A DNA stretch of 48,596 nt from an uncultured Gammaproteobacteria bacterium (GCA_964358525.1 CAYHPU010000001.1:1-48596), one strand, 5' to 3'. Positions 9,335-47,403 are shown, counted from the first letter of the stretch. Notes: generated by a model from the letters alone, not told the origin. Made by a program: numbers and translations.

Positions 9335-10150
9335 TTAGAGGTGCGCTACTTGTAGTAGATCTTTTTCTCCAAAATATCTCCCCAGGAACAATTTCACCAG
9401 TACATTATACTGTTCGCTAAAGTCCGAAACATAATATTCTCTTTTTTGATTCTTTTTTATCAATTTTTCTATTTCTGGATGATTTTCAAAATAGTTTTTA
9501 AGTTTTTCTGGAATAACTACCGCCTCAGAAACAATAGTAATACCCTCTCCTAAAACATTTCGAATTTGCTTTTCAATAAGGCTGTAATGAGTACATCCTA
9601 AAAGAAGCGTGTCGATGTTTCTTTTTATGAGTGGATATAGATATTTCTCCAGAATAGATTTGAGCCCGTCCCATTCGAACTCACCTTCTTCAATAATAGG
9701 AACAAGGAGGGGACATTCGTTTTGAACAACCGTACTCTCTGGCAAAACTTTTCGTATCTCGCGCTCAAACGCCCCAGAAGAAATGGTAGCCCGCGTACCA
9801 ATGACGCCAACACACTTTGATTGAAGTACTGCAATAGTCTCGACAGCTGGTTTAACAACCCCTAAAATTCTTCTGCTGGGATATTTTTGTGGTAAATATT
9901 CACGCTGTAATCTACGAAGTGCGTTTGTTGTGGATGTATTACAGGCAAGAATTACGAGTGCACAATTTTTCTTGAATAAAAAATCTACTGATTGTTTTGT
10001 CAATTCATAAATTAGTTCTGGTGATTTATTTCCATATGGCACGTGAGCATTGTCACCAAGATACACGTAATTATAGTCGGGTAACTTCTTGTACAACTCT
10101 TTGAGTACTGATAACCCACCAAGGCTTGAATCAAAAACCCCAATATTCAT
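9335..10150 (-). CDS. murI: glutamate racemase
   Basis: GVFDSSLGGLSVLKEL, the catalytic Cys motifs LACNTSTT and LGCTHYSL, 271 aa. Confidence 0.9.
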   Translation of the reverse strand: MNIGVFDSSLGGLSVLKELYKKLPDYNYVYLGDNAHVPYGNKSPELIYELTKQSVDFLFKKNCALVILACNTSTTNALRRLQREYLPQKYPSRRILGVVKPAVETIAVLQSKCVGVIGTRATISSGAFEREIRKVLPESTVVQNECPLLVPIIEEGEFEWDGLKSILEKYLYPLIKRNIDTLLLGCTHYSLIEKQIRNVLGEGITIVSEAVVIPEKLKNYFENHPEIEKLIKKNQKREYYVSDFSEQYNVLVKLFLGRYFGEKDLLQVAHL

Positions 10151-13523: not shown

Positions 13524-14549
13524 ATGCGGTATCTACTCAAAGTTACTATAATTGTTTTAATTACTCTCGGTATTGGACTGTGGTGGTTTAATAAAGCCAA
13601 ACCGCCGGTGCTTTCAAAATCTGGAAAACCGAAACAAACCTTTGTCGTTACCACTCAGAACCTAAAGAGTACCTTAAGCATTTCCGGAACTGTGCAGGCT
13701 GAAGAGAAGGTCTTGCTCCAATTTCAAACATCAGGAAAACTCTCGTGGGTTGGTGTAAAAGAAGGGGACTCTGTTCAAAAGTACCAAGCGATTGCCGGAC
13801 TTGATCAGCGAGATTTACAAAAGAATTTGCAAAAAAAATTATACGACTTCACCTCGTCGCGCTGGACTGTTGATCAATGGAGAGACGATAATAAAAGCGC
13901 CGCAACAGGAGACACAAATATCTATTTGAGTGACCGTTTAACTCGCCTGGCACAGCAGGGTCAATTTTCTCTTGACAAGACTATTCTTGATGTTGAACTT
14001 TCCCAATTAACTATTGAGCTGGCAACGCTCGTAACTCCAATTGGGGGAATTGTTACGCACGTCGACCAGCCATACGCAGGAGTTAATATTACCCCGGCAG
14101 GCGCACGGTTTGAAATTGTCAATCCCGATTCTCTATACCTAAGGGGGTTCGTAGATCAACAGGATGTCATTAAGCTTCGAGAAAATTCGAGAGCAGAAAT
14201 TATATTTGATGCAATCCCCGATAAAAACTACGTCGGGAAACTTGTTTACATTGCTTTTTCTCCTGAATCTTCTGACGAAAATTCGTATGTAATTAAAATT
14301 AAGTTACCCCACTCTCTGTTGTCAAAGGTGCGTCTTGGTATGGGTGCAGAAATTTCTATAAATACGTTGCAAAAAAATGGTGTTCTCGCGGTTCCCCTCG
14401 AAGCAATAGAAGAGCAAGGAACTAAAAAATATATATTTATACAAACAAAAAACGGTGAAGTAAAAAAACAAATTACAACAGGTCTCGAAACTGATGAATT
14501 CGTTGAGGTTAAAAAAGGTCTTAAAAAGAACGATGTTGTTGTCTATTAA
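13524..14549 (+). CDS. efflux ABC periplasmic adaptor (MacA/HlyD-family membrane fusion protein)
   Basis: N-terminal TM. The lipoyl-like motif ISGTVQAEEKVLLQFQTSGKLSWVGVKEGDSVQKYQAIAGLD. Followed by ABC ATPase and FtsX-type permease genes. Confidence 0.8.
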   Translation: MRYLLKVTIIVLITLGIGLWWFNKAKPPVLSKSGKPKQTFVVTTQNLKSTLSISGTVQAEEKVLLQFQTSGKLSWVGVKEGDSVQKYQAIAGLDQRDLQKNLQKKLYDFTSSRWTVDQWRDDNKSAATGDTNIYLSDRLTRLAQQGQFSLDKTILDVELSQLTIELATLVTPIGGIVTHVDQPYAGVNITPAGARFEIVNPDSLYLRGFVDQQDVIKLRENSRAEIIFDAIPDKNYVGKLVYIAFSPESSDENSYVIKIKLPHSLLSKVRLGMGAEISINTLQKNGVLAVPLEAIEEQGTKKYIFIQTKNGEVKKQITTGLETDEFVEVKKGLKKNDVVVY

Positions 14550-23325: not shown

Positions 23326-23679
23326 TTAGTTTATCCCCGCCTTTTTATGTTTAAAAACCTCAAGTTCAACAACCCCCCCATCTTCTTCGTCTCCCTCTGA
23401 TTCGTTGAATAATTCACTGAGTCGCTCTTCAAAATAGGAGCGCCCAACTCCACTTTTTTCAAACTCCTGCGCATTCGACCGAATAAGTACGCGCAGCATA
23501 CATGCTCTCCAAATCTTTTCGAGCAGCTCGCTGTCCATTACTTGTGATGAAGGAACACCTCCCCCCCGACACCGAATAACAACGTTATCCATTGTTAGGT
23601 CGCGAATCATTTGTTTTTTTGAGGGGGGGTTGTTGAGGATACGAAAAACCTCTTCTCTTATCTTTTTATTAGAAAACAT
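23326..23679 (-). CDS. hypothetical soluble acidic-tailed protein
   Basis: 117-aa ORF ending 2 nt upstream of the secD start. TACAAT lies 6 nt before its ATG. I recognise no family. Confidence 0.55.
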   Translation of the reverse strand: MFSNKKIREEVFRILNNPPSKKQMIRDLTMDNVVIRCRGGGVPSSQVMDSELLEKIWRACMLRVLIRSNAQEFEKSGVGRSYFEERLSELFNESEGDEEDGGVVELEVFKHKKAGIN

Positions 23680-23818: not shown

Positions 23819-25153
23819 ATGGACAAGGATTTATTGTGGAAAAAGACGCTTGATGAACTCGGGGTTGATATGCCCGAGTTAACGTTTCAAATGTTTTTTA
23901 AGCACACGTCTGCCCACGAGCTCAACGAAAACACATTAACTGTTGGGTGCCCAAACGACGGGGTTTGTTTTGTTTTGAAAAACAAATACTACGACGCCGT
24001 TTTTAATACACTTCAGAAATATAGTCGTATTCCTATAACAAAAATCATATTTGTGTCTAATCACCAGAACACCCGACACAGGGGAATTATATCCGCCGAA
24101 CTTTTTTCTAATATTGGTCCTGGCGCAGAAGAGAAAATTCGCGCGGCGGGTTTAAATAATCGGTTTACTTTCGAAAATTTTGCGGACTCCGTTTCTAATC
24201 AACTCGCGCACGCCGCACTTCTCGCTGTTAGCCAAAACCCCGGAAAAGCATACAACCCTCTGTTTTTGTGGGGGGGTGTAGGTGTTGGTAAAACCCACCT
24301 TATTCAGGCGCTTGGAAGAAAAATCATTGAAACAACGGGACAAAATGTTCTTTACTGTACTATGGAAGATTTTACAAATAACCTTGTTGAAGCAATAAAA
24401 AACAAATCAACCGCGCCGTTTCGAAAAAAATACCGCGCGTGTGACGTTCTCCTTATTGACGATATTCAGTTTGTTTCTGAAAGGGAGTTTATCCAAGAAG
24501 AACTCTTTTACACTTTTAACAAGCTCCAGGCCGCCGGAAAACAGGTTATTTTTACCTCAGACAAGCCCCCGCGCTCCATAAAAAAAATCGAAGACCGCCT
24601 GGTTTCCCGTTTTTTGAGCGGTCTGGTTATTGATATACAACAACCAGACTACGAACTTAAGACGGCAATTCTCCTTCTTAAGGGACGGGAAAGAGGGCTG
24701 TCCTTAGACGCCGAAACGGCCAGGCTTATTGCCGCCCACATTGAAGAACTACGCGAGCTTGAGGGGTTCTTATTACGGCTTGTTGCACTTAAAGAGTCCG
24801 GGGCTACTATATCAAAAGATTCCGTTGAGCGCATCCTTCTCCAAAACGGCCTGCAACCGGTAAAACGGAATGACCCGCGAGACATATTGCGCGTCGTGTG
24901 CAAGGAAATGGGTGTTTCATTGAAAGATATCAGGGAGAAGGGCCGCAAAAAAAAGGTTGCTCTTGCGAGGCACGTTGCGATGTATTTTTTAAAGACACTC
25001 ACCTCTTTTACCTATGAAGAGGTCGCACGAATGGTAGGAAAAAAGGATCACACTACCGTGATGCACGGGGTTCAAAAAGTTATTAACACGGCCTCTACCG
25101 ACGAAGCGCTTCGTCACAACCTGGAAAGGGTGCGGTCCTATTTTAATTCATAG
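23819..25153 (+). CDS. dnaA: chromosomal replication initiator DnaA
   Basis: AAA+ Walker A GGVGVGKTHL, LLIDDIQF, and C-terminal domain IV with ...VALARHVAMYF...HTTVMHG. Confidence 0.95.
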   Translation: MDKDLLWKKTLDELGVDMPELTFQMFFKHTSAHELNENTLTVGCPNDGVCFVLKNKYYDAVFNTLQKYSRIPITKIIFVSNHQNTRHRGIISAELFSNIGPGAEEKIRAAGLNNRFTFENFADSVSNQLAHAALLAVSQNPGKAYNPLFLWGGVGVGKTHLIQALGRKIIETTGQNVLYCTMEDFTNNLVEAIKNKSTAPFRKKYRACDVLLIDDIQFVSEREFIQEELFYTFNKLQAAGKQVIFTSDKPPRSIKKIEDRLVSRFLSGLVIDIQQPDYELKTAILLLKGRERGLSLDAETARLIAAHIEELRELEGFLLRLVALKESGATISKDSVERILLQNGLQPVKRNDPRDILRVVCKEMGVSLKDIREKGRKKKVALARHVAMYFLKTLTSFTYEEVARMVGKKDHTTVMHGVQKVINTASTDEALRHNLERVRSYFNS

Positions 25154-25239
25154 TTTTACACAATGTTTTCAACACTATTTTGTTCTGTGTTAAAGGGAAC
25201 ATTTCCACTTGTTCACGTTGTATACTATTACAACTATTT

Positions 25240-26346
25240 ATGAAAACAACTGTTGTACGAGAACGTTTTTTGTCCACATTACAAAGCGCGGGTTTTTTTG
25301 TCTCAACAAAAATCAATGAGTTAGGGGCGCTTCGGGGCGTATATATTGAAGTAAGCAAAAACGGAATTATTGTTAAGTCAACAAACATTAATGATTTTTA
25401 TGTGGGGGAATGTGGTGGAAAAGTCGAAGAAGAGGGAAGCGCTTTAGTTGAGTACAAAACCTTCTTTGAGGCAGTTCGCTCCTTTGCGGACACAAAAATA
25501 GTTATTAACACAACCGACAAAAGCCTCATTATTAGGGGGGCGGCGGGGGAAGCACGAATTCCATTAATGGATGTGGCGGGGTTTCCACACCAACAGGAAC
25601 TCAAGGAAAAAAAGGAAATAGAAAAAAATATTTTTTCTCACAATATCCTTGATCGCATTCTTTTCAGTACGGCGACGGAGGAAACGAGGCCAATTTTAAC
25701 CGGGACGTGTATACAATATAAAGACGGACAGATTAATATAGTAGGAACGGACGGTTTTCGAATGTCGCGCGGTGTGGTCGAAACAAAAAAAGGGGAAGCG
25801 AGTGAAGAAAAGTATATTATTTCTTCTCGGAGCCTCGTGGCGGTTTTAAAAATTTTAGGAAACAATAGTAAAGAGGTGTGGTACTATTCCGAGGGAAAGA
25901 CAATTGAGTTTATAGGAGAAGGTCAGAAAATTCAGAGTCGCCTACTTGAGGGAGAGTTTCCTCCTTATGAAAAAGTAATTCCCTTGTCTCACGAAACCCA
26001 GCTTGTTTTTAAAAAAGAAGATTTTTCAAACGCCCTCAAAACAGTTGGTTTATTTGCCCGAGAAGGGTCAAGGATGGTTATTTTTAAAATAGAAGGGGGG
26101 AAGCTGACTCTTTCTTCGGCGTCCCCAGGAAGCGGCGAGGGAACGGCCGAAATAACACCATCTTTATTTGAAGGAAAAGACAATAAAATTACCTTTAATC
26201 ATAAATATTTAGTAGATATTTCAGGACACCTCGATGGAGAAGACATTGTTTTTGAAATGTCCAATCCTTTTGCGCCAGGGGTATTTAAAAATATAAATGA
26301 AGATGGTTACACCCATATAATAATGCCAATACGAACACAAGAATAG
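25240..26346 (+). CDS. dnaN: DNA polymerase III beta sliding clamp
   Basis: Directly follows dnaA. I chose ATG 25240 (MKTTVVRERFLSTLQ). Contains RPILTG...GTDGFRMS and C-terminal MPIR. Confidence 0.9.
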   Translation: MKTTVVRERFLSTLQSAGFFVSTKINELGALRGVYIEVSKNGIIVKSTNINDFYVGECGGKVEEEGSALVEYKTFFEAVRSFADTKIVINTTDKSLIIRGAAGEARIPLMDVAGFPHQQELKEKKEIEKNIFSHNILDRILFSTATEETRPILTGTCIQYKDGQINIVGTDGFRMSRGVVETKKGEASEEKYIISSRSLVAVLKILGNNSKEVWYYSEGKTIEFIGEGQKIQSRLLEGEFPPYEKVIPLSHETQLVFKKEDFSNALKTVGLFAREGSRMVIFKIEGGKLTLSSASPGSGEGTAEITPSLFEGKDNKITFNHKYLVDISGHLDGEDIVFEMSNPFAPGVFKNINEDGYTHIIMPIRTQE

Positions 26347-29504: not shown

Positions 29505-30011
29505 ATGGAAGAAATGGAAAACAACAATTCAAACCAAGCGTTATTTTTATGGGATGCTCCTATACGATATTTTGAGAAAAAGCCGCCAACATTTGGGAAA
29601 TCTTTAATAGCCCTCGGTATTCTGTTTTCATTAATTGCTTATTTTATTGGCGAACCATTTTTAGTTTTGGTTGTGTGGATGGTTGTGTTTGTTTCTTATG
29701 TAAAAATAACTATCCCCCCACCAAACACACAATATTCGGTAACTACTTTTGGTATACACATTAGTGAGACAATTATTGAATATAAGCACATTCATAGTTT
29801 TGCATATGAAATAAAAAAAGAGGGAAGTGTTCTTCGTTTTTACCTTACTATTACAGGACAACCATTTTTTGTCATACTACCAATGCCCTTTCTAAAAACA
29901 ACAGAACTCTTGACTTTTCTAAAATCACAACTACCTTATTTGGAGCGCGTACCAAAAACAGACGCAGAACGGTTTACCGAATGGGCGGGGAAAACAATAG
30001 GATTAACGTAA
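29505..30011 (+). CDS. hypothetical two-TM membrane protein
   Basis: 168-aa ORF. TATAAT at 29501-29506 suggests the functional start may be the second ATG at 29514 (leaderless). Confidence 0.6.
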   Translation: MEEMENNNSNQALFLWDAPIRYFEKKPPTFGKSLIALGILFSLIAYFIGEPFLVLVVWMVVFVSYVKITIPPPNTQYSVTTFGIHISETIIEYKHIHSFAYEIKKEGSVLRFYLTITGQPFFVILPMPFLKTTELLTFLKSQLPYLERVPKTDAERFTEWAGKTIGLT

Positions 30012-30581
30012 GGAGATTAATCGTTTAACAAACTCTTCAGGAAGCATTTCTGTACACCCAAAAAGCCTGGCCCAGGTACGGAGCCCCGCGTCTGAAGAAA
30101 CGAGACTCGCGTCCCTTTCTCGCGATAACATAATAAGGCCAAAATCCGTTGTAGAGTCTAAAAAACCCTCTCGTGTCGTACGCCTATATTTATCTCGCAG
30201 TGTTCGAAGTGGATTTTCTCCATCATTAAGGGGAGGATTTTTTGCGTATTCTTCTGCCGCACGAAGTCCTTTATATAAGCGTGTTCCTATTTCTGCAACT
30301 AAGCGTTCAAACAGCGTGGCATCAAATGAAAGCCCGGTAAGATTTGGAGATGAAATAGTTAGAACAGACCGCAGAGGAAGAAGTGTTTGAGGTGTACCAT
30401 CAAAAAAAGATTCAAGTTCATGAAGTGCGTCGGGCGTGGTAAGGAACTGTGCCACCTCTTTTGATACAAGGGGGCTAGCGTATGATATAAAAGACTCAAT
30501 AACCGCCTCTTTATTTTCCCCAAGACCTAAATCTCGCTGTAGGTTCACAAAAAAATTAGTATCAATAACAAATTTAATCAT
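30003..30581 (-). CDS. PIN_5-type metallonuclease, candidate protein-only RNase P (HARP, Aq_880-like)
   Basis: 192 aa. N-terminal FVIDTNFF (Asp7), ...[10 protein letters not shown]...LRDKYRR...[33 protein letters not shown], with Asp142, Asp146 and Asp164. Confidence 0.6.
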
Positions 30582-32298: not shown

Positions 32299-33135
32299 TT
32301 AAAAAGGAAGCTCAATGGTTCGTGCCATGTCTTGCATTCGTTTTTTTAGCGCCTGGAAGAAGGTGTCTTTTGGTTCACCAGGAGACCCGTCTTGATACAC
32401 GTGCCCCCCCATTGGATATTTAAATATTTCTTTGCGAATAGGTTCTCCGGTAAGGGTATAAATTCCCGCTATAATATACTGATAAAGAAACTCAATATAT
32501 CCATTTTTTTCGGGTCGACGAAAAGACGGGTAGAGAACTGGCTCTTTAAGAACTTGAAGGAGAACCCCCATTTTGCGTATGCGCTGCACAATATCGTGAT
32601 CCTCGGCAAGCTTTAACGTCTCGTCGAAGCCATTCACTTTTTCAAATATTGATCGCTCTATAATAATGTTAAACCCTGGCGCAAAGGGTTTTCCAAGAGC
32701 ATTAAGTGTTTCAATAATAAAGTTTGATATTCCAACAAGAATTATTTGTTTCTGAGAATTGTTGTTACACACAAGACGCGTTGTAAAAAGTAACTCTTGT
32801 TTCTGTAGGATTCGTTTATGTAATTTGTTTAAAAAATTACGGGGGATTCGTACATCAGCATCAAAAAAAATAAAATATGCTCCTTTTGCCGCCCGTACTC
32901 CTTTGTTTCGTTGCCCAGGGACACTCTTCTCGTGATTTTCAATAATGGTTATGGGAAATTTTTTAGTAAATTTCTTTATTTCAGCCACCGTTTTATCAGT
33001 AGATCCACCATCAACAACAACAACCTCAAAGTCTTTATAAGACTGGGACTTAAAATCATTAAAAAGTTTTGGGATATACTTATCTTCGTTGAGAGACGGA
33101 ATTATTATGGAAAAAAAAACCTTTGGAGAGATCAT
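32299..33135 (-). CDS. family 2 glycosyltransferase
   Basis: FSIIIPSLNEDKYI...VVVVDGGSTDKT...FFDADV. TACAAT lies 6 nt before the ATG. Confidence 0.85.
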   Translation of the reverse strand: MISPKVFFSIIIPSLNEDKYIPKLFNDFKSQSYKDFEVVVVDGGSTDKTVAEIKKFTKKFPITIIENHEKSVPGQRNKGVRAAKGAYFIFFDADVRIPRNFLNKLHKRILQKQELLFTTRLVCNNNSQKQIILVGISNFIIETLNALGKPFAPGFNIIIERSIFEKVNGFDETLKLAEDHDIVQRIRKMGVLLQVLKEPVLYPSFRRPEKNGYIEFLYQYIIAGIYTLTGEPIRKEIFKYPMGGHVYQDGSPGEPKDTFFQALKKRMQDMARTIELPF

Positions 33136-33268: not shown

Positions 33269-33574
33269 CTAATTACCCCCAATAGAGAATTTGGTGAGAT
33301 TAATTCCGAGCGCGAGTTCGAGTGCTTTAAGTACCATAAACCCACCCGAAACAATTAAAAGCCCGGTGAGCGCGGAAAAAAAGGTAGCTTTTGCCTTTTT
33401 TAATTTTGCGGCGTCGTCTCCCGCAGTAAGCCAGGTAATAGAACCAATAACAAACATAACAAGTAGAATTATAAAGACAAGTCCACCAAGTGCCCCTAAT
33501 AAGTTTTGAATAACGATCTCAAGACACGAAAGTTGTGGAACACCGTCTATGAGGCACGAATCCCATGAGCGCAT
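33269..33574 (-). CDS. TrbC/VirB2-like (T4SS-type) pilin-like small membrane protein
   Basis: 101 aa. Helix, then TWLTAGDDAAKLKKAKATFFSALTGLLIV, then a second helix. All five paralogues share this two-helix layout with a G(D/E)...K..AK....A..G loop. Confidence 0.65.
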   Translation of the reverse strand: MRSWDSCLIDGVPQLSCLEIVIQNLLGALGGLVFIILLVMFVIGSITWLTAGDDAAKLKKAKATFFSALTGLLIVSGGFMVLKALELALGINLTKFSIGGN

Positions 33575-33584
33575 AAATAATTAG

Positions 33585-33935
33585 TTAAATTCCTCCCGTA
33601 GTACCAAATCGAGGAATAGTAATTGGTTTTGAAATACCAAGCCCAAGCCCAAACACTTGTTCGATTAAAACAATAAGAGCAAAAGTAACAAACATAACAA
33701 GGAGTCCAACAACAGCAGTTGTCATTTCTTTACGTGCTTTTTCAACTTTTTCTTTATCTCCACCGGACTGTATCCAGTCGAGTGCACCACGAAGCATATG
33801 ATAAAACACAAAAAAAGCAGCTAAGATAAGAATAATGCGGATCGCCCAGCTTAATATATCACCAAGGTCGGTAACAAGAAAAGCGGGTTTAGATACAGAA
33901 AACGTTACCGGTGCTTGCGCTAATAGTTTTTCCAT
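33585..33935 (-). CDS. TrbC/VirB2-like pilin-like small membrane protein
   Basis: 116 aa. FFVFYHMLRGALDWIQSGGDKEKVEKARKEMTTAVVGLLV is very similar to 40449..40814. Confidence 0.7.
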   Translation of the reverse strand: MEKLLAQAPVTFSVSKPAFLVTDLGDILSWAIRIILILAAFFVFYHMLRGALDWIQSGGDKEKVEKARKEMTTAVVGLLVMFVTFALIVLIEQVFGLGLGISKPITIPRFGTTGGI

Positions 33936-33943
33936 ATACAGCT

Positions 33944-33971
33944 AATATACCACTCTCATGCTGGTTTGCAA
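33944..33971 (-). promoter_or_regulatory. sigma70-type promoter TTGCAA-N16-TGgTATATT, 8 nt before the pilin ATG 33935
   Basis: Minus strand GTTGCAAaccagcatgagagTGGTATATTagctgtatATG. The -35 begins right after the stop of the upstream gene. Confidence 0.55.
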
Positions 33972-33972
33972 C

Positions 33973-35607
33973 TTAAAATATAAGACGATACACAACGTTA
34001 TCGGTTAGAAACAAGACGAGTGAATCGTTCGGAGCTACAAGCGCCGTGGCTTTTCTTAATTTCTCATTAAAAAGTGATTTTTGTATCGTTCCTTTGTTAT
34101 CAACAATAATGATGCGCGCCTTACTTGAATCAAGAAAATAAAAATTTTTCGTTTTTTCATTTTTACTCATAGATGTAATGGAAGAATAAGGTAATGAAGT
34201 ATCAAACATATTTTTCTGTCGTACACCAGAAGTAAACGGTACTACGCTTTGTGCCGACCGGACGTATAGTGAAAAATCAATTACTACTTCTTTGGCGGTA
34301 GCAAGAGAAATACCAGAGCCCTGTTTAAAATAACTTGCCTTTTCAGCAAAGCCATCTCCGATGGGAAAGTATTTATACACTTCGTCGTTTATTATATCGA
34401 GCAGGTATAGGTTACCATTAAAAACCCTCATATCCTTTATTGTTCCCCAGTCTGGATCAAACGGAATTACATTTGTTTTTTTGTTTCCACTAAAAACAGA
34501 AACACCATTTTTTTGATCAAAAACAAATAGACGGTCGTTGTAGTTTGTTGCAAAACGTGGTAACGAAACTCCAGTCAACGAAACAGCGGTTTGTTTTTTT
34601 GTTTCGACAACCACGTTGTAGGCCTTTTTATTATTCGGATCAAGTAGCGTAAGAACTCCACTATTCAGGGAAAGTGAAGACGCGCGTGCTTTTGGACTAA
34701 TCAATCGAACGTCAAAAAAAATTTCAACAGCTGAAGTTTCTAAAGAGCCAAATCCCGTCTTTAACCCGGAAATTTTTGTCTCAAAAAATAGTAGTTGCGA
34801 TTTTTTTTCTGGGAAGGACTGTTTAAGAAGTGCTATCTTTTTTTCAAGAGAGGAAATTGTTTTGGTTGCTTTTGACGGGCTTTCTCCAAACAATTTTTCT
34901 GTCTTATTAAATTCGACTTTTAATTCCGTAACCTGTGTTTCAAATTGTTTTTGATGGCTAGTACTAATAACAGAACCAATAAGAAAAACAAGTTTTATAG
35001 TTATTACTATCATAATGGCTATGAAAATTATAAATATTACAACGGCGACGGTTTTTTTTTCTAACTTTCTTTGAACAGGAGGAGATGGTGTTGGTAATGC
35101 GTCTGTTTTTTGTATTTGAACAATTAAACACGCCCCACGAGTATTTTTTTCATGTTTCTTAATATACTCAACCACTTCTTTAATTTCTTCCACCGAACGA
35201 GTAACAATATGCGACACATTGGTGGTTTTTAAAAACGAATCAGTAAGTGCGAACAACTGATCGTTTTCAAGTAACGTACCCTCAACAAACCTACTACCAC
35301 TACTAATGGTGAATTCTTTATTATCTCGCTTCAACAGAAGTGTGCCGTTAAACGTGTAACTCCATATGCGCGGGTCCTTGATATATACAAAAACACATGA
35401 TGTAACGGTGGTATATTTATTGAGCAATTCGGTAATTGCTTCTCGCGGTGTGTTTGACTCTGTAAGTTCCTCAACAAATAACCGTGTTGTTTCCTCAGCA
35501 TTTTCTCCTGCAACTTCTACAACCCCATACAATTCGTGTTCTGCCAAAAATAAACAAGCATAGTGGGGCGAATTTTCACTCAAAAAGACAGCAAATCGAC
35601 GTTCCAT
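33973..35607 (-). CDS. hypothetical bitopic membrane protein (cytoplasmic N-domain, TM, coiled coil, beta-rich extracytoplasmic C-domain)
   Basis: 544 aa. TM VAVVIFIIFIAIMIVITIKLVFLIGSVI at about aa 187-214. The C-terminal ~270 aa has repeated 'lyvlD..n..vy' strands, suggesting a beta-propeller-like fold. No family is recognised. Confidence 0.7.
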   Translation of the reverse strand: MERRFAVFLSENSPHYACLFLAEHELYGVVEVAGENAEETTRLFVEELTESNTPREAITELLNKYTTVTSCVFVYIKDPRIWSYTFNGTLLLKRDNKEFTISSGSRFVEGTLLENDQLFALTDSFLKTTNVSHIVTRSVEEIKEVVEYIKKHEKNTRGACLIVQIQKTDALPTPSPPVQRKLEKKTVAVVIFIIFIAIMIVITIKLVFLIGSVISTSHQKQFETQVTELKVEFNKTEKLFGESPSKATKTISSLEKKIALLKQSFPEKKSQLLFFETKISGLKTGFGSLETSAVEIFFDVRLISPKARASSLSLNSGVLTLLDPNNKKAYNVVVETKKQTAVSLTGVSLPRFATNYNDRLFVFDQKNGVSVFSGNKKTNVIPFDPDWGTIKDMRVFNGNLYLLDIINDEVYKYFPIGDGFAEKASYFKQGSGISLATAKEVVIDFSLYVRSAQSVVPFTSGVRQKNMFDTSLPYSSITSMSKNEKTKNFYFLDSSKARIIIVDNKGTIQKSLFNEKLRKATALVAPNDSLVLFLTDNVVYRLIF

Positions 35608-35617
35608 AGTTAATACA

Positions 35618-35830
35618 TCAGAGTGCTATTGTAGAAAACAATAGTAAAAAGAGTCCCAGAACAATTGTTAAAAGAGAGGCGCTAAACAAATATCTATTTT
35701 CACTTGCACTATATGCTCTGTTCATTTTTTTGAGCTGCTGCCGAAAAATAAATGAATAAATAAGATATCCCCCGCTAAAAAAAATACTCACAATTTTTAA
35801 CAATACGGATAAGTAGGGAGTGTCATTCAT
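35618..35830 (-). CDS. small two-TM membrane protein
   Basis: 70-aa ORF with two hydrophobic helices. Overlaps the upstream gene by 8 nt. Confidence 0.55.
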   Translation of the reverse strand: MNDTPYLSVLLKIVSIFFSGGYLIYSFIFRQQLKKMNRAYSASENRYLFSASLLTIVLGLFLLLFSTIAL

Positions 35831-36365
35831 GGTGTTCTTGCATAAGTTTATTTAATGTTTGTGCAACAAGCGACGGGTGAGGTATGCTCATAAACTCAAT
35901 ATTTGGGTTTTCTCCGGCGGTTTGTATCGTTATATCTCCATAATTAAAATAAGCACTAAAAAATCCAGCACTTTTTTGTTCCACTTCTTCAATTTTTTCA
36001 AGCGTAGTAGCGTTGGTAACACTATTTAGTATATTGTAGACATCAATGTCAATAACGCGCCTGTCAGAAATAATTCCAATGTTAAAGTACCACACAAATA
36101 TTTTATTAAGTACATAGGACAAAGTAAACCCATACCATGCAATAATAATAAACGTTTGTTGTTGTGTTGAAATTGGCACTTGTGCAAGTGGAATAGCGAG
36201 CAGTATAGGGGCAGAAAGCAGTAATATCGAAATTATAGAACTCACAAAAAGTGTCGCAGGGTGTGCACGGAGAGACAGGAGAATATGTTCTTCGGGTTGT
36301 TGGGATGCAAAAGTGTCTTTAGGATGTTCACAGAACGCGTGTAAGAATGTGTGGCGCGTTTTCAT
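35823..36365 (-). CDS. membrane-flanked bacterial PH domain protein (bPH_2/DUF304-like)
   Basis: Two TM helices followed by IISDRRVIDIDVYNILNSV...YGDITIQTAGENPNIEFMSIPHP. TGaTACAAT lies 7 nt before the ATG. Confidence 0.7.
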   Translation of the reverse strand: MKTRHTFLHAFCEHPKDTFASQQPEEHILLSLRAHPATLFVSSIISILLLSAPILLAIPLAQVPISTQQQTFIIIAWYGFTLSYVLNKIFVWYFNIGIISDRRVIDIDVYNILNSVTNATTLEKIEEVEQKSAGFFSAYFNYGDITIQTAGENPNIEFMSIPHPSLVAQTLNKLMQEHHE

Positions 36366-36394
36366 ATCAACAATTGTATCACACGCGTAACTTG

Positions 36395-36424
36395 TTGCAA
36401 AAACACCACCACGTGGTATACAAT
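36395..36424 (+). promoter_or_regulatory. candidate rny promoter TTGCAA-N16-TGgTATACA(AT)
   Basis: TTGCAA 36395-36400 and TGGTATACAAT 36414-36424. It would give a ~130-nt leader before ATG 36560. Confidence 0.4.
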
Positions 36425-36559
36425 GAGTGCGTTATTAGTTTCAGAAGAACAACGAGTTATTATTTCAGAATATATGCGTTATCCAGAATTAAAGCGCACC
36501 AACAGTGTATTTCTCGGTCAATAAATAACCCGTGCTCCTTCTGTACTTACTGAGCCCGT

Positions 36560-39768: not shown

Positions 39769-40065
39769 ATGTTTGTGCTACTTGCAGAAGTTGATTTGGG
39801 ACAAAGTTTTGCGCCTGCCCAGAAATTTAATTCAGTTGGGGCAATGGTGAATGTACTTAGTAAAGCTATTGCCTTTGGGGGTGGGGTTATTATTGTTGCG
39901 AGCATCGTATTTGCTGCTTATAAATATATTACAGCAAACGGAGAAGCAAAAAGTATAGAAGAGGCGCAAGGCGCGTTTGTTAACGCAATGATTGGTATGC
40001 TTATTATTGTCACCGCCTATTGGTTAACACAAATCCTTGCAAAATTTTTAGGAGTACAATTTTAA
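39769..40065 (+). CDS. TrbC/VirB2-like pilin-like small membrane protein
   Basis: 98 aa. ...VIIVASIVFAAYKYITANGEAKSIEEAQGAFVNAMIGMLIIV... Confidence 0.65.
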   Translation: MFVLLAEVDLGQSFAPAQKFNSVGAMVNVLSKAIAFGGGVIIVASIVFAAYKYITANGEAKSIEEAQGAFVNAMIGMLIIVTAYWLTQILAKFLGVQF

Positions 40066-40068
40066 TAT

Positions 40069-40452
40069 ATGGTGAATTTATTTTTGGCCGATGCAACTGA
40101 TCCATTAGGACTGCGAGATATTCAACCACCTGTCGGAAGCAGTAATGTAAACGATCCAAACAGTGGTCTCGTTATGTTTATCAATCGTGGATTTACGCTC
40201 CTTTTTATGGGATTTGGTTTGTATGTTTTGGTGAATTTTATACGCGCGGCATTTTGGTTTATAGGTGCTCAGGGCGACCCGAAAAATATAGAAAAGGCAA
40301 AAAGTACATTAACACAAAGTGCAATTGGACTTATTTTAATATTGTTAGTTTTTGTAGTTGGCGGAGTTATCGGCCAAGTATTTTTTGGCAATTGGAATTT
40401 TTTACTTGATCCGATAAAATCGCTAGAACAACAAGGAGTTTTACAGCAATGA
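40069..40452 (+). CDS. TrbC/VirB2-like pilin-like small membrane protein
   Basis: 127 aa. ...FIRAAFWFIGAQGDPKNIEKAKSTLTQSAIGLILILL... Confidence 0.65.
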   Translation: MVNLFLADATDPLGLRDIQPPVGSSNVNDPNSGLVMFINRGFTLLFMGFGLYVLVNFIRAAFWFIGAQGDPKNIEKAKSTLTQSAIGLILILLVFVVGGVIGQVFFGNWNFLLDPIKSLEQQGVLQQ

Positions 40453-40814
40453 ATACATTATTGCTAGCACAAAAAATAGGTGCGGGAGTTTTAGGTGGAG
40501 ATAGAAATCTCAACACACAGGCATCTATAGGGATTGTCTTTAATCAACTCTTTACCTATGCACTTATTGCGGGTGCGTTTCTTGTTTTTTACCACCTCGT
40601 TATGGGGGCACTTGAATGGATTCAGTCTGCAGGAGAAAAAGAAAAAGTTGAAAAAGCCCGCAAACGTATGACAAACGCCGCAGTGGGACTAGTCATTCTC
40701 ATGTGTGTATGGACGGTATTTTTTGTTCTGACAAGCGACGTATTGGGCATATTTCAAAGAAACGAAACAACCGGAGCTATAGAGTTCAAACTTCCCTCAT
40801 TATTTGGTAACTGA
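40449..40814 (+). CDS. TrbC/VirB2-like pilin-like small membrane protein
   Basis: 121 aa. FLVFYHLVMGALEWIQSAGEKEKVEKARKRMTNAAVGLVI. Its start overlaps the previous stop (ATGA). Confidence 0.7.
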   Translation: MNTLLLAQKIGAGVLGGDRNLNTQASIGIVFNQLFTYALIAGAFLVFYHLVMGALEWIQSAGEKEKVEKARKRMTNAAVGLVILMCVWTVFFVLTSDVLGIFQRNETTGAIEFKLPSLFGN

Positions 40815-41765
40815 TTGAATATTCTCTAACGTTTTTGTATTAATCTCAAGAAGTGCTTCTTTACTATTAAATGCGTTATGGGGAGTAATAATGACATTGG
40901 GAAATTCCAGCAAAACATGATCGAGCAATAGCGTTTTGACAGAGGAAAGCTCAATATATTCACGTGACAACAAGTGTCTTTCGTCTTTGATAGTTTGTTC
41001 TTCTTCAAGTACATCGAGCGCCACTCCTGCGAGTATCTTATTTTGGAGAAGTTGAACAAGAGCCTCTGTTTCAATTATTCCACCGCGTGCGGTATTAATG
41101 AGATATGCTCCTTTTTTGATGTGCCCCATATTCTCGCGGTTAATCAAATGCATTGTATCCGAAGTAAGTGGGGTATGAATAGTAATAATGTCTGACTGTT
41201 CGAGGAGATCAATAAGTGAAACTAGTGTTACACTTGGCAGATCTTTAGGGGACCGATTAAAACCAATAACTTTCATGTGAAAAGCATTCCCAATTTCTGC
41301 AACGCGGCACCCAATATTTCCCAGCCCAATTACTCCAAGTGTTTTTCCCGCGAGGTCAAAACCAGTGAGTTCCTCACATGAAAAATTGCTGTGCCTGGTT
41401 CGCTCAACAGAGGGAATGATATTTCGTGAAAGTGCCAAGATAAGGGCAAATGTATGCTCTGCAACAGTATTTATCCCATAGTGGGGAACATTTAATACAA
41501 AAATGTTCTTCTGTTGCAACGCAGATACATCTATGTGATCGGTGCCCGTTGATCGGGTAACAACAGTCTTGAGTTTTACGGCGCCAGAGATAACGTCTGC
41601 CGTTACCCTCGAGCCAATAAAGACGGTTACAATATCTGCGTCGATTATTAAGTCTTTATTTGTAGAACTAAGTGCGTCAGGATAGAACACAAGGTCGTGT
41701 GAAGAAAGTTCTTTTGAAAAAAATTCTTTTTCATACGGTTCTACTTCGAAAAATAGTATCTTCAT
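40800..41765 (-). CDS. D-isomer-specific 2-hydroxyacid dehydrogenase (NAD-binding)
   Basis: GKTLGVIGLGNIGCRVAEI, catalytic-region ...NTARGGII...ALDVLEEE...ITPHNAF. Confidence 0.85.
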   Translation of the reverse strand: MKILFFEVEPYEKEFFSKELSSHDLVFYPDALSSTNKDLIIDADIVTVFIGSRVTADVISGAVKLKTVVTRSTGTDHIDVSALQQKNIFVLNVPHYGINTVAEHTFALILALSRNIIPSVERTRHSNFSCEELTGFDLAGKTLGVIGLGNIGCRVAEIGNAFHMKVIGFNRSPKDLPSVTLVSLIDLLEQSDIITIHTPLTSDTMHLINRENMGHIKKGAYLINTARGGIIETEALVQLLQNKILAGVALDVLEEEQTIKDERHLLSREYIELSSVKTLLLDHVLLEFPNVIITPHNAFNSKEALLEINTKTLENIQSVTK

Positions 41766-45524: not shown

Positions 45525-45570
45525 AACCCTAACCCAACTACTTACTAACGGCTTTACCTTAACCCTAACC
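45521..45570 (-). repeat. TTAGGG-like G-rich dispersed repeat, copy C (G-rich on minus strand)
   Basis: Minus strand GGTTAGGGTTAAGGTAAAGCCGTTAGTAAGTAGTTGGGTTAGGGTTGTGG. Its first GGTTAG contains the alaS stop codon. Confidence 0.75.
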
Positions 45571-47403
45571 AAATCTAGCATATATTCTCCGCACCCCTTT
45601 TCCCACACTCTCTTGTTTGTAAATTGACAAAGTAGGAGAAAGTTCAGACAAATTCGAAACATGTGGTCCGCCGCAAAATTCTTTACTGAACGCTGTTTTA
45701 ATATCGTTCCCTATAAAATATACTTTCACTTTTTCTCCATATTTTTCTTTAAAAAAATGGAGGGCTCCTGTTTTTTCTGCTTCTTCTTTGGGGAGTATTA
45801 CAAACTGCACCGGCAATTTTTTCTGAATAGTTTCATTTGCGAGTGCCTCTATTTTTTTTATCTCATGATCGGCAAGGGGGAAATCGTGCGAAAAATCAAA
45901 TCTCAATCGCTCGTTAGTAATATTACTTCCCTGTTGTTGTATATGAGGGCCAAGAACTGTCCGCATAGATTGATGTAATACGTGCGTTGCGGTATGAAGT
46001 TGTACAACTTCAGTACTGTGGTCAGCGAGTCCTCCTTTAAATTTTTGTTCGGCGCCTTTTCGAGAAAGGTCCTGGTGTTTCTTCTTATACTGTTCGTAGG
46101 CAGTAAGATGTTTTTTTTTATCGGTGATATGAATATTGTGTTCCACCAGTTCTTCAAGAGACATCTCTGGAGGAAACCCGATCGACTGGTATAAGTCGAA
46201 AATGTATTGTGCGGCAACGTTAGGATTTTCTAATTTTGTACCATGGTGCTGAATTATACGCTGTAGTTCGCGTTGTCCATTAATAAGTGTCATGGAAAAT
46301 TTTTGCTCCTCGTCGGCAAATAATGTTTTAATCTCACTTTGTTTAGTAGACAACTCAGGATAGAGCCACGAGAACAAGGTACAAACAGTATCGACAAGGT
46401 TGACACTAATTCCTTTTTCAATTCCAAGAACTCTTCCTGTTCGTACCATGCGACGAAGGATTCTTCGCAGGAAGTATCCTTGGTCTTTATTAGAAGGGAC
46501 CACTCCATCCATTGCCATAATAGTGATGCTTCGGATATGATCGGCCAATGTTCTCATGGCGCGCTTTGTTTTTTCGTTTTCATAGTAGTCTTTACCACTG
46601 AGAGATTGAATCTTCTCGATAATAGGCCAAAACATGTCCGTTTCAAAGATGTCTTGTTTACCTTGGCAAACAAGCGCGATCCTTTCGAGTCCGCCACCGA
46701 AGTCAACATTATTTTGAGGGAGCTGTGCCCATCCGTTTCCCTCAATTCTTCTGTATTGCATAAAAACAGTATTACCAATCTCCAAAAATTCTTCTTCGTG
46801 TTTTGAAGGATCTTTCCCCTCGCCAGAACCAGTCCCTAAATAATAATAAATTTCGCTATCTGGCCCGCCAAGTTCACCAACGACTTCTCCGCGTTGCCAC
46901 CAATTTTTGTCTCGTCCACACGTATAGATTCGTTTGTTTTCTTTTGCACTGATTTTGTACTTTGCAAAAATATCTTTAATAATTTCTATAGATTCAATAT
47001 CTCTGGGCGCGTATCTATCTCCTTCAAAAACGGTGGCAAAGATGCGCTGAGGATCTAGTCCGAGCTCATCGATCAAAAAACCATAGATCCAACCCAATTG
47101 CTCTTTTTTAAAATAATCGCCGAGGCTCCAATTTCCAATCATATGAAACATGGTGGTGTGGCGGTTGTCTCCAACTTCTTCTAGGTCTTCCTGAAACCGA
47201 CCAGCTCGCTGTACATTCATAAGACGTTTTCCGAGTGGATGTTGCTCGCCAGACAAATAGGGTCCCAAGGGAAACATACCACAGTTAACAAAAAGGAGGG
47301 TCGAATCTCCTTCGGGGACAAGGGACATGTTAGAAATCTGTATATGGCCATTACTCTGATATAGTGCGAAGTATTTTTTAAGAATATCTTGAGAAGATAA
47401 CAT
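45565..47403 (-). CDS. alaS: alanine--tRNA ligase, short form lacking the C-Ala domain
   Basis: Catalytic core FVNCGM...RHTTMFHMIGNWSLGDYFK. Editing-domain motifs HTATHVLH and CGGPHV lie near the C-terminus. 612 aa. Confidence 0.9.
   Translation of the reverse strand: MLSSQDILKKYFALYQSNGHIQISNMSLVPEGDSTLLFVNCGMFPLGPYLSGEQHPLGKRLMNVQRAGRFQEDLEEVGDNRHTTMFHMIGNWSLGDYFKKEQLGWIYGFLIDELGLDPQRIFATVFEGDRYAPRDIESIEIIKDIFAKYKISAKENKRIYTCGRDKNWWQRGEVVGELGGPDSEIYYYLGTGSGEGKDPSKHEEEFLEIGNTVFMQYRRIEGNGWAQLPQNNVDFGGGLERIALVCQGKQDIFETDMFWPIIEKIQSLSGKDYYENEKTKRAMRTLADHIRSITIMAMDGVVPSNKDQGYFLRRILRRMVRTGRVLGIEKGISVNLVDTVCTLFSWLYPELSTKQSEIKTLFADEEQKFSMTLINGQRELQRIIQHHGTKLENPNVAAQYIFDLYQSIGFPPEMSLEELVEHNIHITDKKKHLTAYEQYKKKHQDLSRKGAEQKFKGGLADHSTEVVQLHTATHVLHQSMRTVLGPHIQQQGSNITNERLRFDFSHDFPLADHEIKKIEALANETIQKKLPVQFVILPKEEAEKTGALHFFKEKYGEKVKVYFIGNDIKTAFSKEFCGGPHVSNLSELSPTLSIYKQESVGKGVRRIYARFG

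Follow-up and report, generated by a model that had tools for sequence, protein, structure and literature searches.

A putative envelope-sensing operon beside VirB2-like pilin genes near the origin of a Microgenomatia chromosome

Through computational analysis of a 48,596-nt stretch of DNA (CAYHPU010000001.1; the whole stretch is called the window), five adjacent minus-strand genes at positions 33,269 to 36,365 have been characterized, two of which encode VirB2-like pilins. The window belongs to a Patescibacteria (Microgenomatia) chromosome and lies near the origin. The interpretation that we consider probable, if only just, is that the five genes form two adjacent transcription units with different jobs, linked in the genome: an envelope-sensing operon and a type IV secretion system (T4SS) pilin operon. 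The first unit would be a Microgenomatia envelope-sensing operon composed of a bPH-like protein, a DUF5657 protein and a 544-aa receptor; the second, pilA and pilB with a promoter of their own, would provide subunits for the Patescibacteria T4SS. In the searchable literature no description was found of the three-gene operon, the 544-aa family or the clade-wide linkage to pilins. The sensor operon and its link to pilins are thus undescribed as far as the search reached, while the pilin pair adds one more case to a type of array already published.

The five open reading frames (ORFs) were all found where the original prediction had placed them. In the order of transcription they encode a bPH-like membrane protein of 180 aa (35823..36365, operon gene 1), a DUF5657 protein of 70 aa with two transmembrane segments (35618..35830, operon gene 2), a 544-aa bitopic receptor-like protein (33973..35607, operon gene 3), the long-type VirB2-like pilin paralogue PilA of 116 aa (33585..33935) and the short-type VirB2-like pilin PilB of 101 aa (33269..33574). 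The genes are tightly spaced, with an 8-nt overlap between the bPH and DUF5657 genes followed by gaps of 10, 37 and 10 nt. Orthologues with 26-61% identity are present in other genomes, which shows that these ORFs are genuine genes rather than chance reading frames.

The 544-aa protein has no Pfam match and its family has no Pfam model. Its AlphaFold2 model, based on a 57-sequence alignment, reached a mean predicted local distance difference test (pLDDT) score of 92.6 and begins with a compact N-domain (aa 1-166), which a disordered linker connects to a long helix; two more helices extend to residue 286, and a propeller (aa 288-543) completes the chain. The helices occupy residues 187-242, 244-264 and 266-286, and the sole hydrophobic segment (aa 181-218) is located inside the long helix. 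Three parts may thereby be delimited on the minus strand: (i) a cytoplasmic PP2C/PPM-fold domain, aa 1-166 (35110..35607), from the model and Foldseek; (ii) a membrane helix with an extracellular helical stalk, aa 187-286 (34750..35049), from hydropathy and the model; (iii) an extracellular six-bladed NHL-type beta-propeller, aa 288-543 (33979..34746), from Foldseek. This arrangement matches the bitopic build with cytoplasmic N-domain, coiled coil and beta-propeller-like ectodomain that had been proposed for the protein from its sequence. In the model the protein is built like a receptor and unlike an assembly ATPase or a channel.

The N-domain modelled alone (pLDDT 95, pTM 0.90) was compared with the PDB by Foldseek, and PP2C phosphatases accounted for all 50 of the matches listed (E 3.8e-8 to 7.8e-5, query TM-score (TMq) up to 0.73), including tPphA, PstP, PppA, SiaA, SpoIIE and RsbX. 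The model shows a PP2C/PPM fold, a beta-sandwich flanked by helices. None of the Pfam families PP2C, PP2C_2 and SpoIIE is matched by the window protein or its 57 homologues, a profile of the N-domain retrieved from the PDB just the SpoIIE-type chain 3zt9 at E = 2, and a PDB sequence-profile search with the whole 544-aa family gave nothing useful. By sequence comparison and motif reasoning, the PPM metal-binding aspartate set (motifs I, II, VIII and XI) is not conserved among the 57 homologues, in which the only conserved acidic positions within aa 1-130 are D116 (98%) and E31 (63%). Judged by motif position, D116 would be the non-catalytic “GD” aspartate, and the “DN” of motif XI appears to be replaced by G-A. 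Since the metal-binding aspartates are not conserved in the family, the N-domain is probably a catalytically degenerate pseudo-phosphatase.

The propeller matched Pizza6 designs as well as NHL domains from TRIM2, Brat and Thin (E 1e-10 to 1e-8, target TM-score (TMt) 0.58-0.75), and the model shows the ectodomain as a six-bladed propeller of the NHL type. The sequence matches of the family to DUF5128, NHL and the PknD sensor are weak; at E <= 0.01 the NHL profile was matched by one of the 57 homologues and that of DUF5128, also a six-bladed propeller, by eight, the window protein matching neither. Searches relying on a word index returned a single match for the 544-aa protein (one again with the 57-sequence profile) and five for the bPH protein. 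They are nearly blind to these fast-evolving proteins, so that an exhaustive search of representatives was needed; this revealed 2258 representative clusters at E <= 1e-3, and at the stricter cut-off of E <= 1e-10 there were 1073. The relatives are mostly 550-620 aa long, and many aligned over their full length.

The remaining two products of the operon are membrane proteins. The bPH-like protein possesses a hydrophobic N-terminal half with transmembrane segments and a C-terminal bacterial-PH-like domain, a build shared with the YdbS/YdbT-type bPH_2 proteins. The sole Pfam family detected for it is bPH_2 (PF03703), at 21.4 bits (E 3.1e-4), 0.6 bits short of the gathering score of 22. In an alignment of 82 mixed proteins (A8), 37 of them orthologues of the window protein, bPH_2 was matched by 17, bPH_3 by four and bPH_1 by one (E <= 0.01). 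As the bPH_2 family is poorly characterised, no function is transferable to this protein. The 70-aa protein is a DUF5657 member (PF18901), scoring 42.7 bits against a gathering score of 25 over profile positions 1-61 of 61; its orthologues are so annotated in loci L084, L088, L090 and L091, and their position is conserved. No mention of DUF5657 or PF18901 was found in the literature search.

The three genes were followed in two sister clades. Clade R comprises 80 loci, mostly from Roizmanbacteria and Microgenomates metagenome-assembled genomes, obtained by scanning one genome per species; clade W, to which the window belongs, was assembled from closest-representative look-ups and a metagenome scan and contains at least 13 contigs with room, the window included. 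Locus scans were keyed on the two peptide motifs [YF]NGN[IL]YLLD and [DG]E[IV][FY]K[YF][TIF]P[ITV], so the sampling is confined to the Microgenomatia. For the neighbourhood counts, hidden Markov models (HMMs) were built from the window proteins and loci with room were counted. In 65 of 68 loci with room the bPH, DUF5657 and 544-family genes share one strand and follow each other in this order, either abutting or overlapping, and the unit is complete in all further loci with room. The three-gene unit is a near-invariant operon.

In clade R the genes are arranged as follows: DUF2130, a 183-aa protein without known function, the three-gene operon, in part of the loci an extracytoplasmic function (ECF) sigma factor block with mevalonate genes, and a convergent pilin pair. 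Beyond the pair lie genes for undecaprenyl-diphosphate synthase, Fic, ATP-dependent DNA ligase and a family-2 glycosyltransferase (GT2). The pilin pair occupies the opposite strand in 49 of 49 cases, at a distance of 2-9490 nt (median 3522). In 39 of 73 clade-R loci the ECF block comes directly after the 544-family gene on its strand, and in nine of these the two overlap by 4 nt (ATGA). The block is composed of the ECF sigma factor, a single-pass protein of 77-81 aa, in which no zf-HC2 motif was found, and a polytopic protein of about 200 aa (204 aa), and is succeeded by a complete mevalonate-pathway operon. Such blocks are found, for example, at 10124..11521 of L090 and 9701..11077 of L091.

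In clade W, identity to the window amounts to 26-30% for the 544-aa protein, 38-45% for the bPH protein, 73-76% for RecA and 62-73% for RNase Y. The PilA orthologues are 44-54% and the PilB orthologues 56-61% identical, which makes them better conserved than the bPH protein or the receptor. The order is rny on the opposite strand, then bPH, DUF5657 and 544-family genes and two pilin genes, the first encoding 113-173 aa and the second about 94-113 aa, with a third pilin gene at this first cluster in L097/L098. The co-occurrence of the trio with pilin genes, suggested beforehand from one sequence, thus extends to other genomes, and the co-oriented string is kept at a RecA identity of 73-76%; a quirk of the window and one close relative was ruled out as its explanation by the clade-W contigs. 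Where the contig reaches far enough (L001, L085, L087 and L088), the GT2 gene follows the pilin pair. In the window this gene (32299..33135, minus strand; Pfam Glycos_transf_2, E 3.8e-29) is next after pilB on the same strand and is preceded by a -10 box of its own, 6 nt from the ATG; it is a conserved neighbour and at most a possible functional member. Synteny around the locus exceeds 12 kb and includes functionally unrelated housekeeping genes (rny, HU, S1, recA). The context upstream of the operon is wholly different between clades R and W, and the pilin pair is 3' of the operon in both.

A second pilin array, encoding proteins of 98, 127 and 121 aa, is located at 39769..40814 on the plus strand. 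It is kept in most clade-W loci (L001, L085, L087 and L089 among them), with the undecaprenyl-diphosphate synthase gene adjoining in L085 and L087; L088 has no second array at that place. The members of this array are the best reciprocal matches to the clade-R pilin pairs, and by sequence and position the second array, not the first cluster, is the counterpart of the clade-R pair beside undecaprenyl-diphosphate synthase. In the direction of transcription the first cluster has the long pilin before the short one, while the clade-R pair and the second array have the short before the long. A simple inversion of the clade-R pair was therefore ruled out for the first cluster, and its long-then-short order suggests a second, independent juxtaposition.

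The assignment of these small proteins relies on the profile PF18895 (T4SS_pilin). PilB matches it at 28.7 bits (gathering score 26.6) and the second-array protein encoded at 40449..40814 at 41.7 bits; PilA (22.6 bits, E 1.1e-4) and the other two second-array proteins (20.8 and 25.4 bits) are below the gathering score. At the level of the family, 49 of 50 orthologues and paralogues match PF18895 (E <= 0.01, best 6e-11), so the pilin identity proposed earlier held in the HMM comparison. The TrbC/VirB2 profile PF04956 was matched by none of the five window pilin-like proteins and none of the 50 family members; of the original VirB2/TrbC-like label, the term “TrbC-like” is valid through PF18895 alone. 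Weak, sub-threshold matches to NF045849, a Mycoplasma pilin-like conjugal transfer protein of integrative and conjugative elements, were obtained for four of the five window pilins, and a profile of the pilin family brought up no conjugative pilin of solved structure in the PDB.

With an HMM of the five window pilins, 106 relatives were recovered in the collected loci. Two types that occur paired can be told apart among them, one long (about 115-135 aa) and one short (about 95-110 aa). In the alignment the core of these proteins consists of helix 1, a charged loop (consensus GAFDWITSGGEKEKxxKAQxKIT) and helix 2; hydropathy indicates two hydrophobic helices around the conserved K/R-rich loop SGG(D/E)KEKxxKA(Q/R)xK. 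PilA is 56% identical over 63 aa to the product of the second-array gene 40449..40814 and 30% identical to PilB in a 50-aa local match. The N-terminus carries no Sec-type hydrophobic leader; it begins with MK[LF]L[AS][QDE] or M[IV]YA[LF], followed by 20-35 polar residues. In full, the long type reads M-K-[LF]-L-[AS]-[QDE] and then [IL]FG.[IV].PP.GM, and the short type M-[IV]-Y-A-[LF]-[DTE]-I or V-Y-A-E-V; these motifs were seen in the window genes (33585..33935, 39769..40814) and in loci L003-L105. VirB2/TrbC proteins and those of the TM7x “Sec-secreted array” have a cleavable N-terminal leader. The short conserved N-terminus of the pilins described here may be a processing site.

The transcription signals speak for a separate pilin unit. 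As had been claimed, a promoter-like site TTGCAA-N16-TGgTATATT (33944..33971, minus strand, read from 33971 to 33944) precedes the pilA ATG (33935) by 8 nt. The site is identical at 27 of 29 nt in L001, a relative with a 69%-identical 544-aa protein, and TTGACA-N16-18-TATAnT is found at the same place in L085, L086, L088, L092, L094, L096 and L102. In most of the other clade-W loci the TTGACA-type site straddles the end of the 544-family gene, and the leader there is 26-45 nt long. The identity in L001 and the clade-wide TTGACA-type box make the internal promoter before the pilin genes a conserved feature; a consensus promoter scan alone was not significant for the region (19 sites vs 12.7 +/- 3.6 expected). 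A second promoter-like site, TTGCAA-N16-TGaTACAAT (36373..36400, minus strand), belongs to the three-gene operon and ends 7 nt before the ATG of the bPH gene, so that the mRNA of this gene would be leaderless; a -10 box also lies 6-7 nt before the orthologous bPH start codon in L085, L088 and L089. Sites of similar placement were noticed at the second array, where TTGACA-N17-TACAGT ends 6 nt upstream of the ATG of the first gene and a TACAAT box 8 nt upstream of that of the second.

In 16 of the 52 plausible window genes a -10 hexamer (TAnnnT with at least five of six matches to TATAAT) ends 6-9 nt before the start codon, where about one was expected by chance, and these genes lack a Shine-Dalgarno sequence. 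Examples are 9335..10150(-), 13524..14549(+), 23326..23679(-), 30003..30581(-), 32299..33135(-), 40800..41765(-) and 45565..47403(-); the S1 and HU genes, unlike these, have leaders with a Shine-Dalgarno sequence. Leaderless mRNA would seem to be the usual mode for the first genes of transcription units in this genome. Since the 16 genes share the arrangement, a leaderless start is not peculiar to the pilin gene. The promoter attributed to the first pilin gene is thus retained, being conserved in most clade-W loci, and its leaderless expression as a peculiarity is not.

No VirB4, VirD4, VirB6, VirB11 or PilB was detected among the plausible window ORFs of at least 90 aa, a scan that passed over ORFs inside longer genes and a few short ORFs at the ends; to that extent the earlier statement that VirB4, VirD4, VirB6 and PilB-type genes are missing from the 48 kb was borne out. 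Nor did the conserved neighbour families of about 1.18 Mb of related loci, or another ten large ORFs from them, yield VirB4, VirD4 or VirB6. These ten, mostly bearing a Walker A motif, were scanned and a hidden VirB4 was ruled out in them; they encode an ABC transporter, a Mg-chelatase-like ATPase, helicases, BipA, GlmS, a DUF4012 protein, a G6PD-6PGD fusion, an AAA_14/DUF4143 ATPase and one protein without Pfam match. Six Roizmanbacteria genomes carrying the locus (L009, L022, L052, L063, L070, L075) are VirB4-positive according to Table S1 of a published survey (PMC12102498), so the missing ATPase would be a matter of location.

Pilin genes without a nearby ATPase are a known situation, because the published arrays are often far from virB4: VirB2-like genes occur in 1,948 Patescibacteria assemblies and near virB4 in just 1,135, and 441 arrays of 2-11 divergent pilin genes have been recorded, most abundantly in Microgenomatia and Saccharimonadia (PMC12102498). 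The pair analysed here resembles these arrays (PMC12102498; PMC10633639) in PF18895, size, two-helix topology, closeness to dnaA, the richness of Microgenomatia in them, and the tandem arrangement of divergent paralogues, PilA and PilB being 30% identical against a published array average of 25% (PMC12102498). However, it is a fixed pair of a long and a short pilin and not a variable run, has no virB4 within 20 genes and stands directly behind a receptor operon, and it has the very short conserved N-terminus instead of a Sec-type signal peptide. T4SS genes of Patescibacteria are often near dnaA (PMC12102498). In the window dnaA and dnaN lie at 23.8-26.3 kb (23819..26346), and the two pilin clusters (33269..36365; 39769..40814) are 7-16 kb away from them; the position of both clusters agrees with the published tendency, virB4 not being among the window genes. 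In Southlakia epibionticum, a homologous pilin array inside the T4SS cluster is essential (PMC10633639; PMC12857230), and the T4SS and its VirB2-like pilins are essential in the sole Patescibacterium tested genetically (PMC10633639). The function and control of the Patescibacteria T4SS and its pilins have been described as completely unknown (PMC11665869).

If the two units are read as proposed, the propeller would bind an extracellular or envelope ligand, and the stalk and membrane helix would relay the signal to the PP2C-fold domain. That domain would act by partner binding more likely than by dephosphorylation, because the PP2C metal-binding aspartates are not conserved in the family, and the invariance of the operon makes the bPH and DUF5657 proteins likely membrane partners of the receptor. 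In clade R the output may pass through the coupled ECF sigma factor. PilA and PilB would adopt the membrane topology of VirB2, the charged loop lying inside and both termini outside. A control or docking of the pilus by the sensor is speculative; from gene order, the adjacency in clade W may represent a regulatory coupling of surface sensing with pilin expression or pilus use.

The closest parallels of the receptor are found among known signalling proteins. Mycobacterium tuberculosis PstP likewise has a cytoplasmic PP2C-fold domain, one membrane helix and an extracellular domain (structures 1txo and 2cm1, TMq 0.73), and M. tuberculosis PknD an extracellular NHL propeller. The likeness to PknD comes through the fold match to the Pizza6 designer propellers, which derive from the PknD sensor. 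There is no detectable sequence similarity between PstP or PknD and the 544-aa protein, whose PP2C-fold domain is, unlike that of PstP, shorter (166 vs about 230 aa) and without a conserved PPM aspartate set; neither PstP nor PknD combines a PP2C fold with an NHL propeller or has bPH and DUF5657 proteins as fixed partners. PknD signals to a sigma-factor regulator. Further structural matches of the N-domain are Pseudomonas aeruginosa PppA, RsbX and SpoIIE. RsbU, RsbX and SpoIIE are partner-switching phosphatases, and PpkA/PppA control the P. aeruginosa type VI secretion system, PppA belonging to its threonine-phosphorylation pathway. Like such PP2C regulators of secretion and sigma factors, the 544-family gene is translationally coupled to an ECF sigma gene in clade R and precedes pilin genes in the window; in contrast to them, a kinase, anti-sigma antagonist or FHA partner was not found in its vicinity, and most catalytic residues are gone. 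The analogy with PppA, RsbU, RsbX and SpoIIE is thus one of fold and gene neighbourhood.

Several observations weigh against the separation into a sensor and a pilin unit. No terminator-like site was found on the transcribed strand between the 544-aa gene and pilA, which together with the tight spacing makes read-through co-transcription, and a shared function, possible. All clade-W contigs with room, at least 13, carry the five genes in one orientation; the first pilin gene starts 41-70 nt after the 544-aa gene, and in L089 it even overlaps that gene. In clade R a pilin pair was found no more than 10 kb downstream of the operon in 38 of 43 loci with room, and none of 39 had one upstream; this steady placement could be more than inherited gene order. 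The VirB4 ATPase and channel would reside elsewhere, as related genomes and surveys suggest, the genome itself being seen for 48.6 kb only. The window's 544-aa protein keeps E31 and D123 at two expected motif positions, and the catalytic loss is read from sequence conservation, not superposition. To our knowledge, none of the three operon proteins has a known ligand, partner or phosphatase activity, and no pilus of PF18895 proteins has been observed in any organism.

Part of these points would fit a single integrated filament or envelope module, in which the trio is a platform inserting, anchoring or polymerising the pilins without a secretion ATPase. The five-gene string co-oriented at family-level divergence (RecA 73-76%), the short gaps with one overlap, the nearness of the pair to the operon in clade R and the lack of an ATPase within tens of kb speak for it, yet the trio has sensor and signalling domains and none for polymerisation, channel formation or energising, the pilins carry their own conserved promoter, and the convergent clade-R pair is up to 9.5 kb off, with ECF sigma and mevalonate genes in between. 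Moreover, L103, L104, L107 and L108 have the operon but no pilin gene within 6 kb downstream, the entire region is syntenic, with rny, HU, S1 and recA, and related genomes encode VirB4. We hold this module to be unlikely, and in the self-contained, ATPase-free form originally predicted it is contradicted by the signalling architecture (PP2C fold, NHL propeller, bPH, ECF coupling) as well as by the opposite-strand pilins of clade R, the VirB4-positive relatives and the published virB4-distant arrays (PMC12102498). A more specific alternative, rather doubtful in our estimate, takes the operon as a dedicated T4SS surface sensor: the propeller would detect cues from the host cell or the envelope, and the pseudo-phosphatase would switch pilin expression or dock the pilus, with ECF output in clade R and the pilin operon directly under the sensor in clade W. 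Real functional coupling, which combines the single-module explanation with the regulatory one, is a serious though minority possibility.

At the other extreme, the linkage may be inherited gene order only, the operon being a general envelope-stress or surface sensor unrelated to type IV secretion. The conservation of more than 12 kb including unrelated genes, the differing orientation and distance of the pilins between clades, and the ECF sigma operon and mevalonate genes immediately downstream in half of the clade-R loci are in its favour; however, the upstream context was replaced between the clades while the pilin pair remained 3' of the operon in both, and the clade-W pair is no simple inversion but suggests a second, independent juxtaposition, so that we regard mere inheritance as rather improbable. 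A different doubt concerns the small proteins themselves, which might not be filament subunits but generic two-helix membrane proteins, parts of a T4SS or partners of the receptor, resembling VirB2. PilA and two of the three second-array proteins are below the PF18895 gathering score, PF04956 is unmatched, the family profile found no solved conjugative pilin, a short conserved N-terminus takes the place of a Sec-type signal peptide, and a review speaks only of the “potential to elaborate” conjugative pili (PMC12857230), in keeping with the missing observation of such a pilus. Against this stand the 49 of 50 members matching PF18895 (best E 6e-11), a topology and charged loop that fit VirB2, and the essential homologous array within the T4SS cluster of Southlakia epibionticum (PMC10633639; PMC12857230), and we consider this explanation very improbable. 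The two adjacent units with different jobs, an envelope-sensing operon and a T4SS pilin operon, remain the interpretation that we favour.

Other features of the window are given for completeness. Besides dnaA and dnaN, it contains secDF, recA, rny, HU, S1, dprA, miaA and alaS, and no Rfam family reached its gathering score anywhere in it. An 874-aa ORF (4317..6941, plus strand) has T/G/N/A-rich repeats (VDxxGGxxTxxG-like), no Pfam match and a locally raised GC content (0.448 vs about 0.39); it resembles a large beta-helical protein of the surface or adhesin kind, and a secretion component was ruled out for it on account of the missing Pfam match and the repetitive composition. A 168-aa protein (29505..30011, plus strand) with a hydrophobic stretch at aa 29-72 and a beta-rich C-terminal domain is kept in L001; Pfam and NCBIfam scans gave no match, and it was ruled out as a bPH paralogue (BLASTP E 1.5). 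In the intergenic region between rny and the bPH gene (36366..36559), 150 nt are 91% identical in L001 and L002, including a block of 85 nt at 100%, despite just 69-81% identity of the flanking trio proteins (bPH, DUF5657, 544-aa). The region contains a TTGCAA-N18-TACAAT site (36395..36424, plus strand), and a 29-nt piece of the block is found again near dprA in L001 and L002. The block has no Rfam match and more distant relatives are without it; it could be a structured RNase Y 5' untranslated region or a 33-aa ORF.

If the linkage were a matter of inherited order only, the locus would represent one more pilin array of the published type and an uncharacterised sensor operon. The analysis also defines a large family without a Pfam model, of more than 2000 clusters, in which a PP2C fold is joined through a membrane helix to an NHL propeller. 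With a receptor-like operon beside pilins in clade W and coupled to an ECF sigma factor in clade R, the locus is a candidate link of surface sensing to the secretion apparatus in host-dependent cells.

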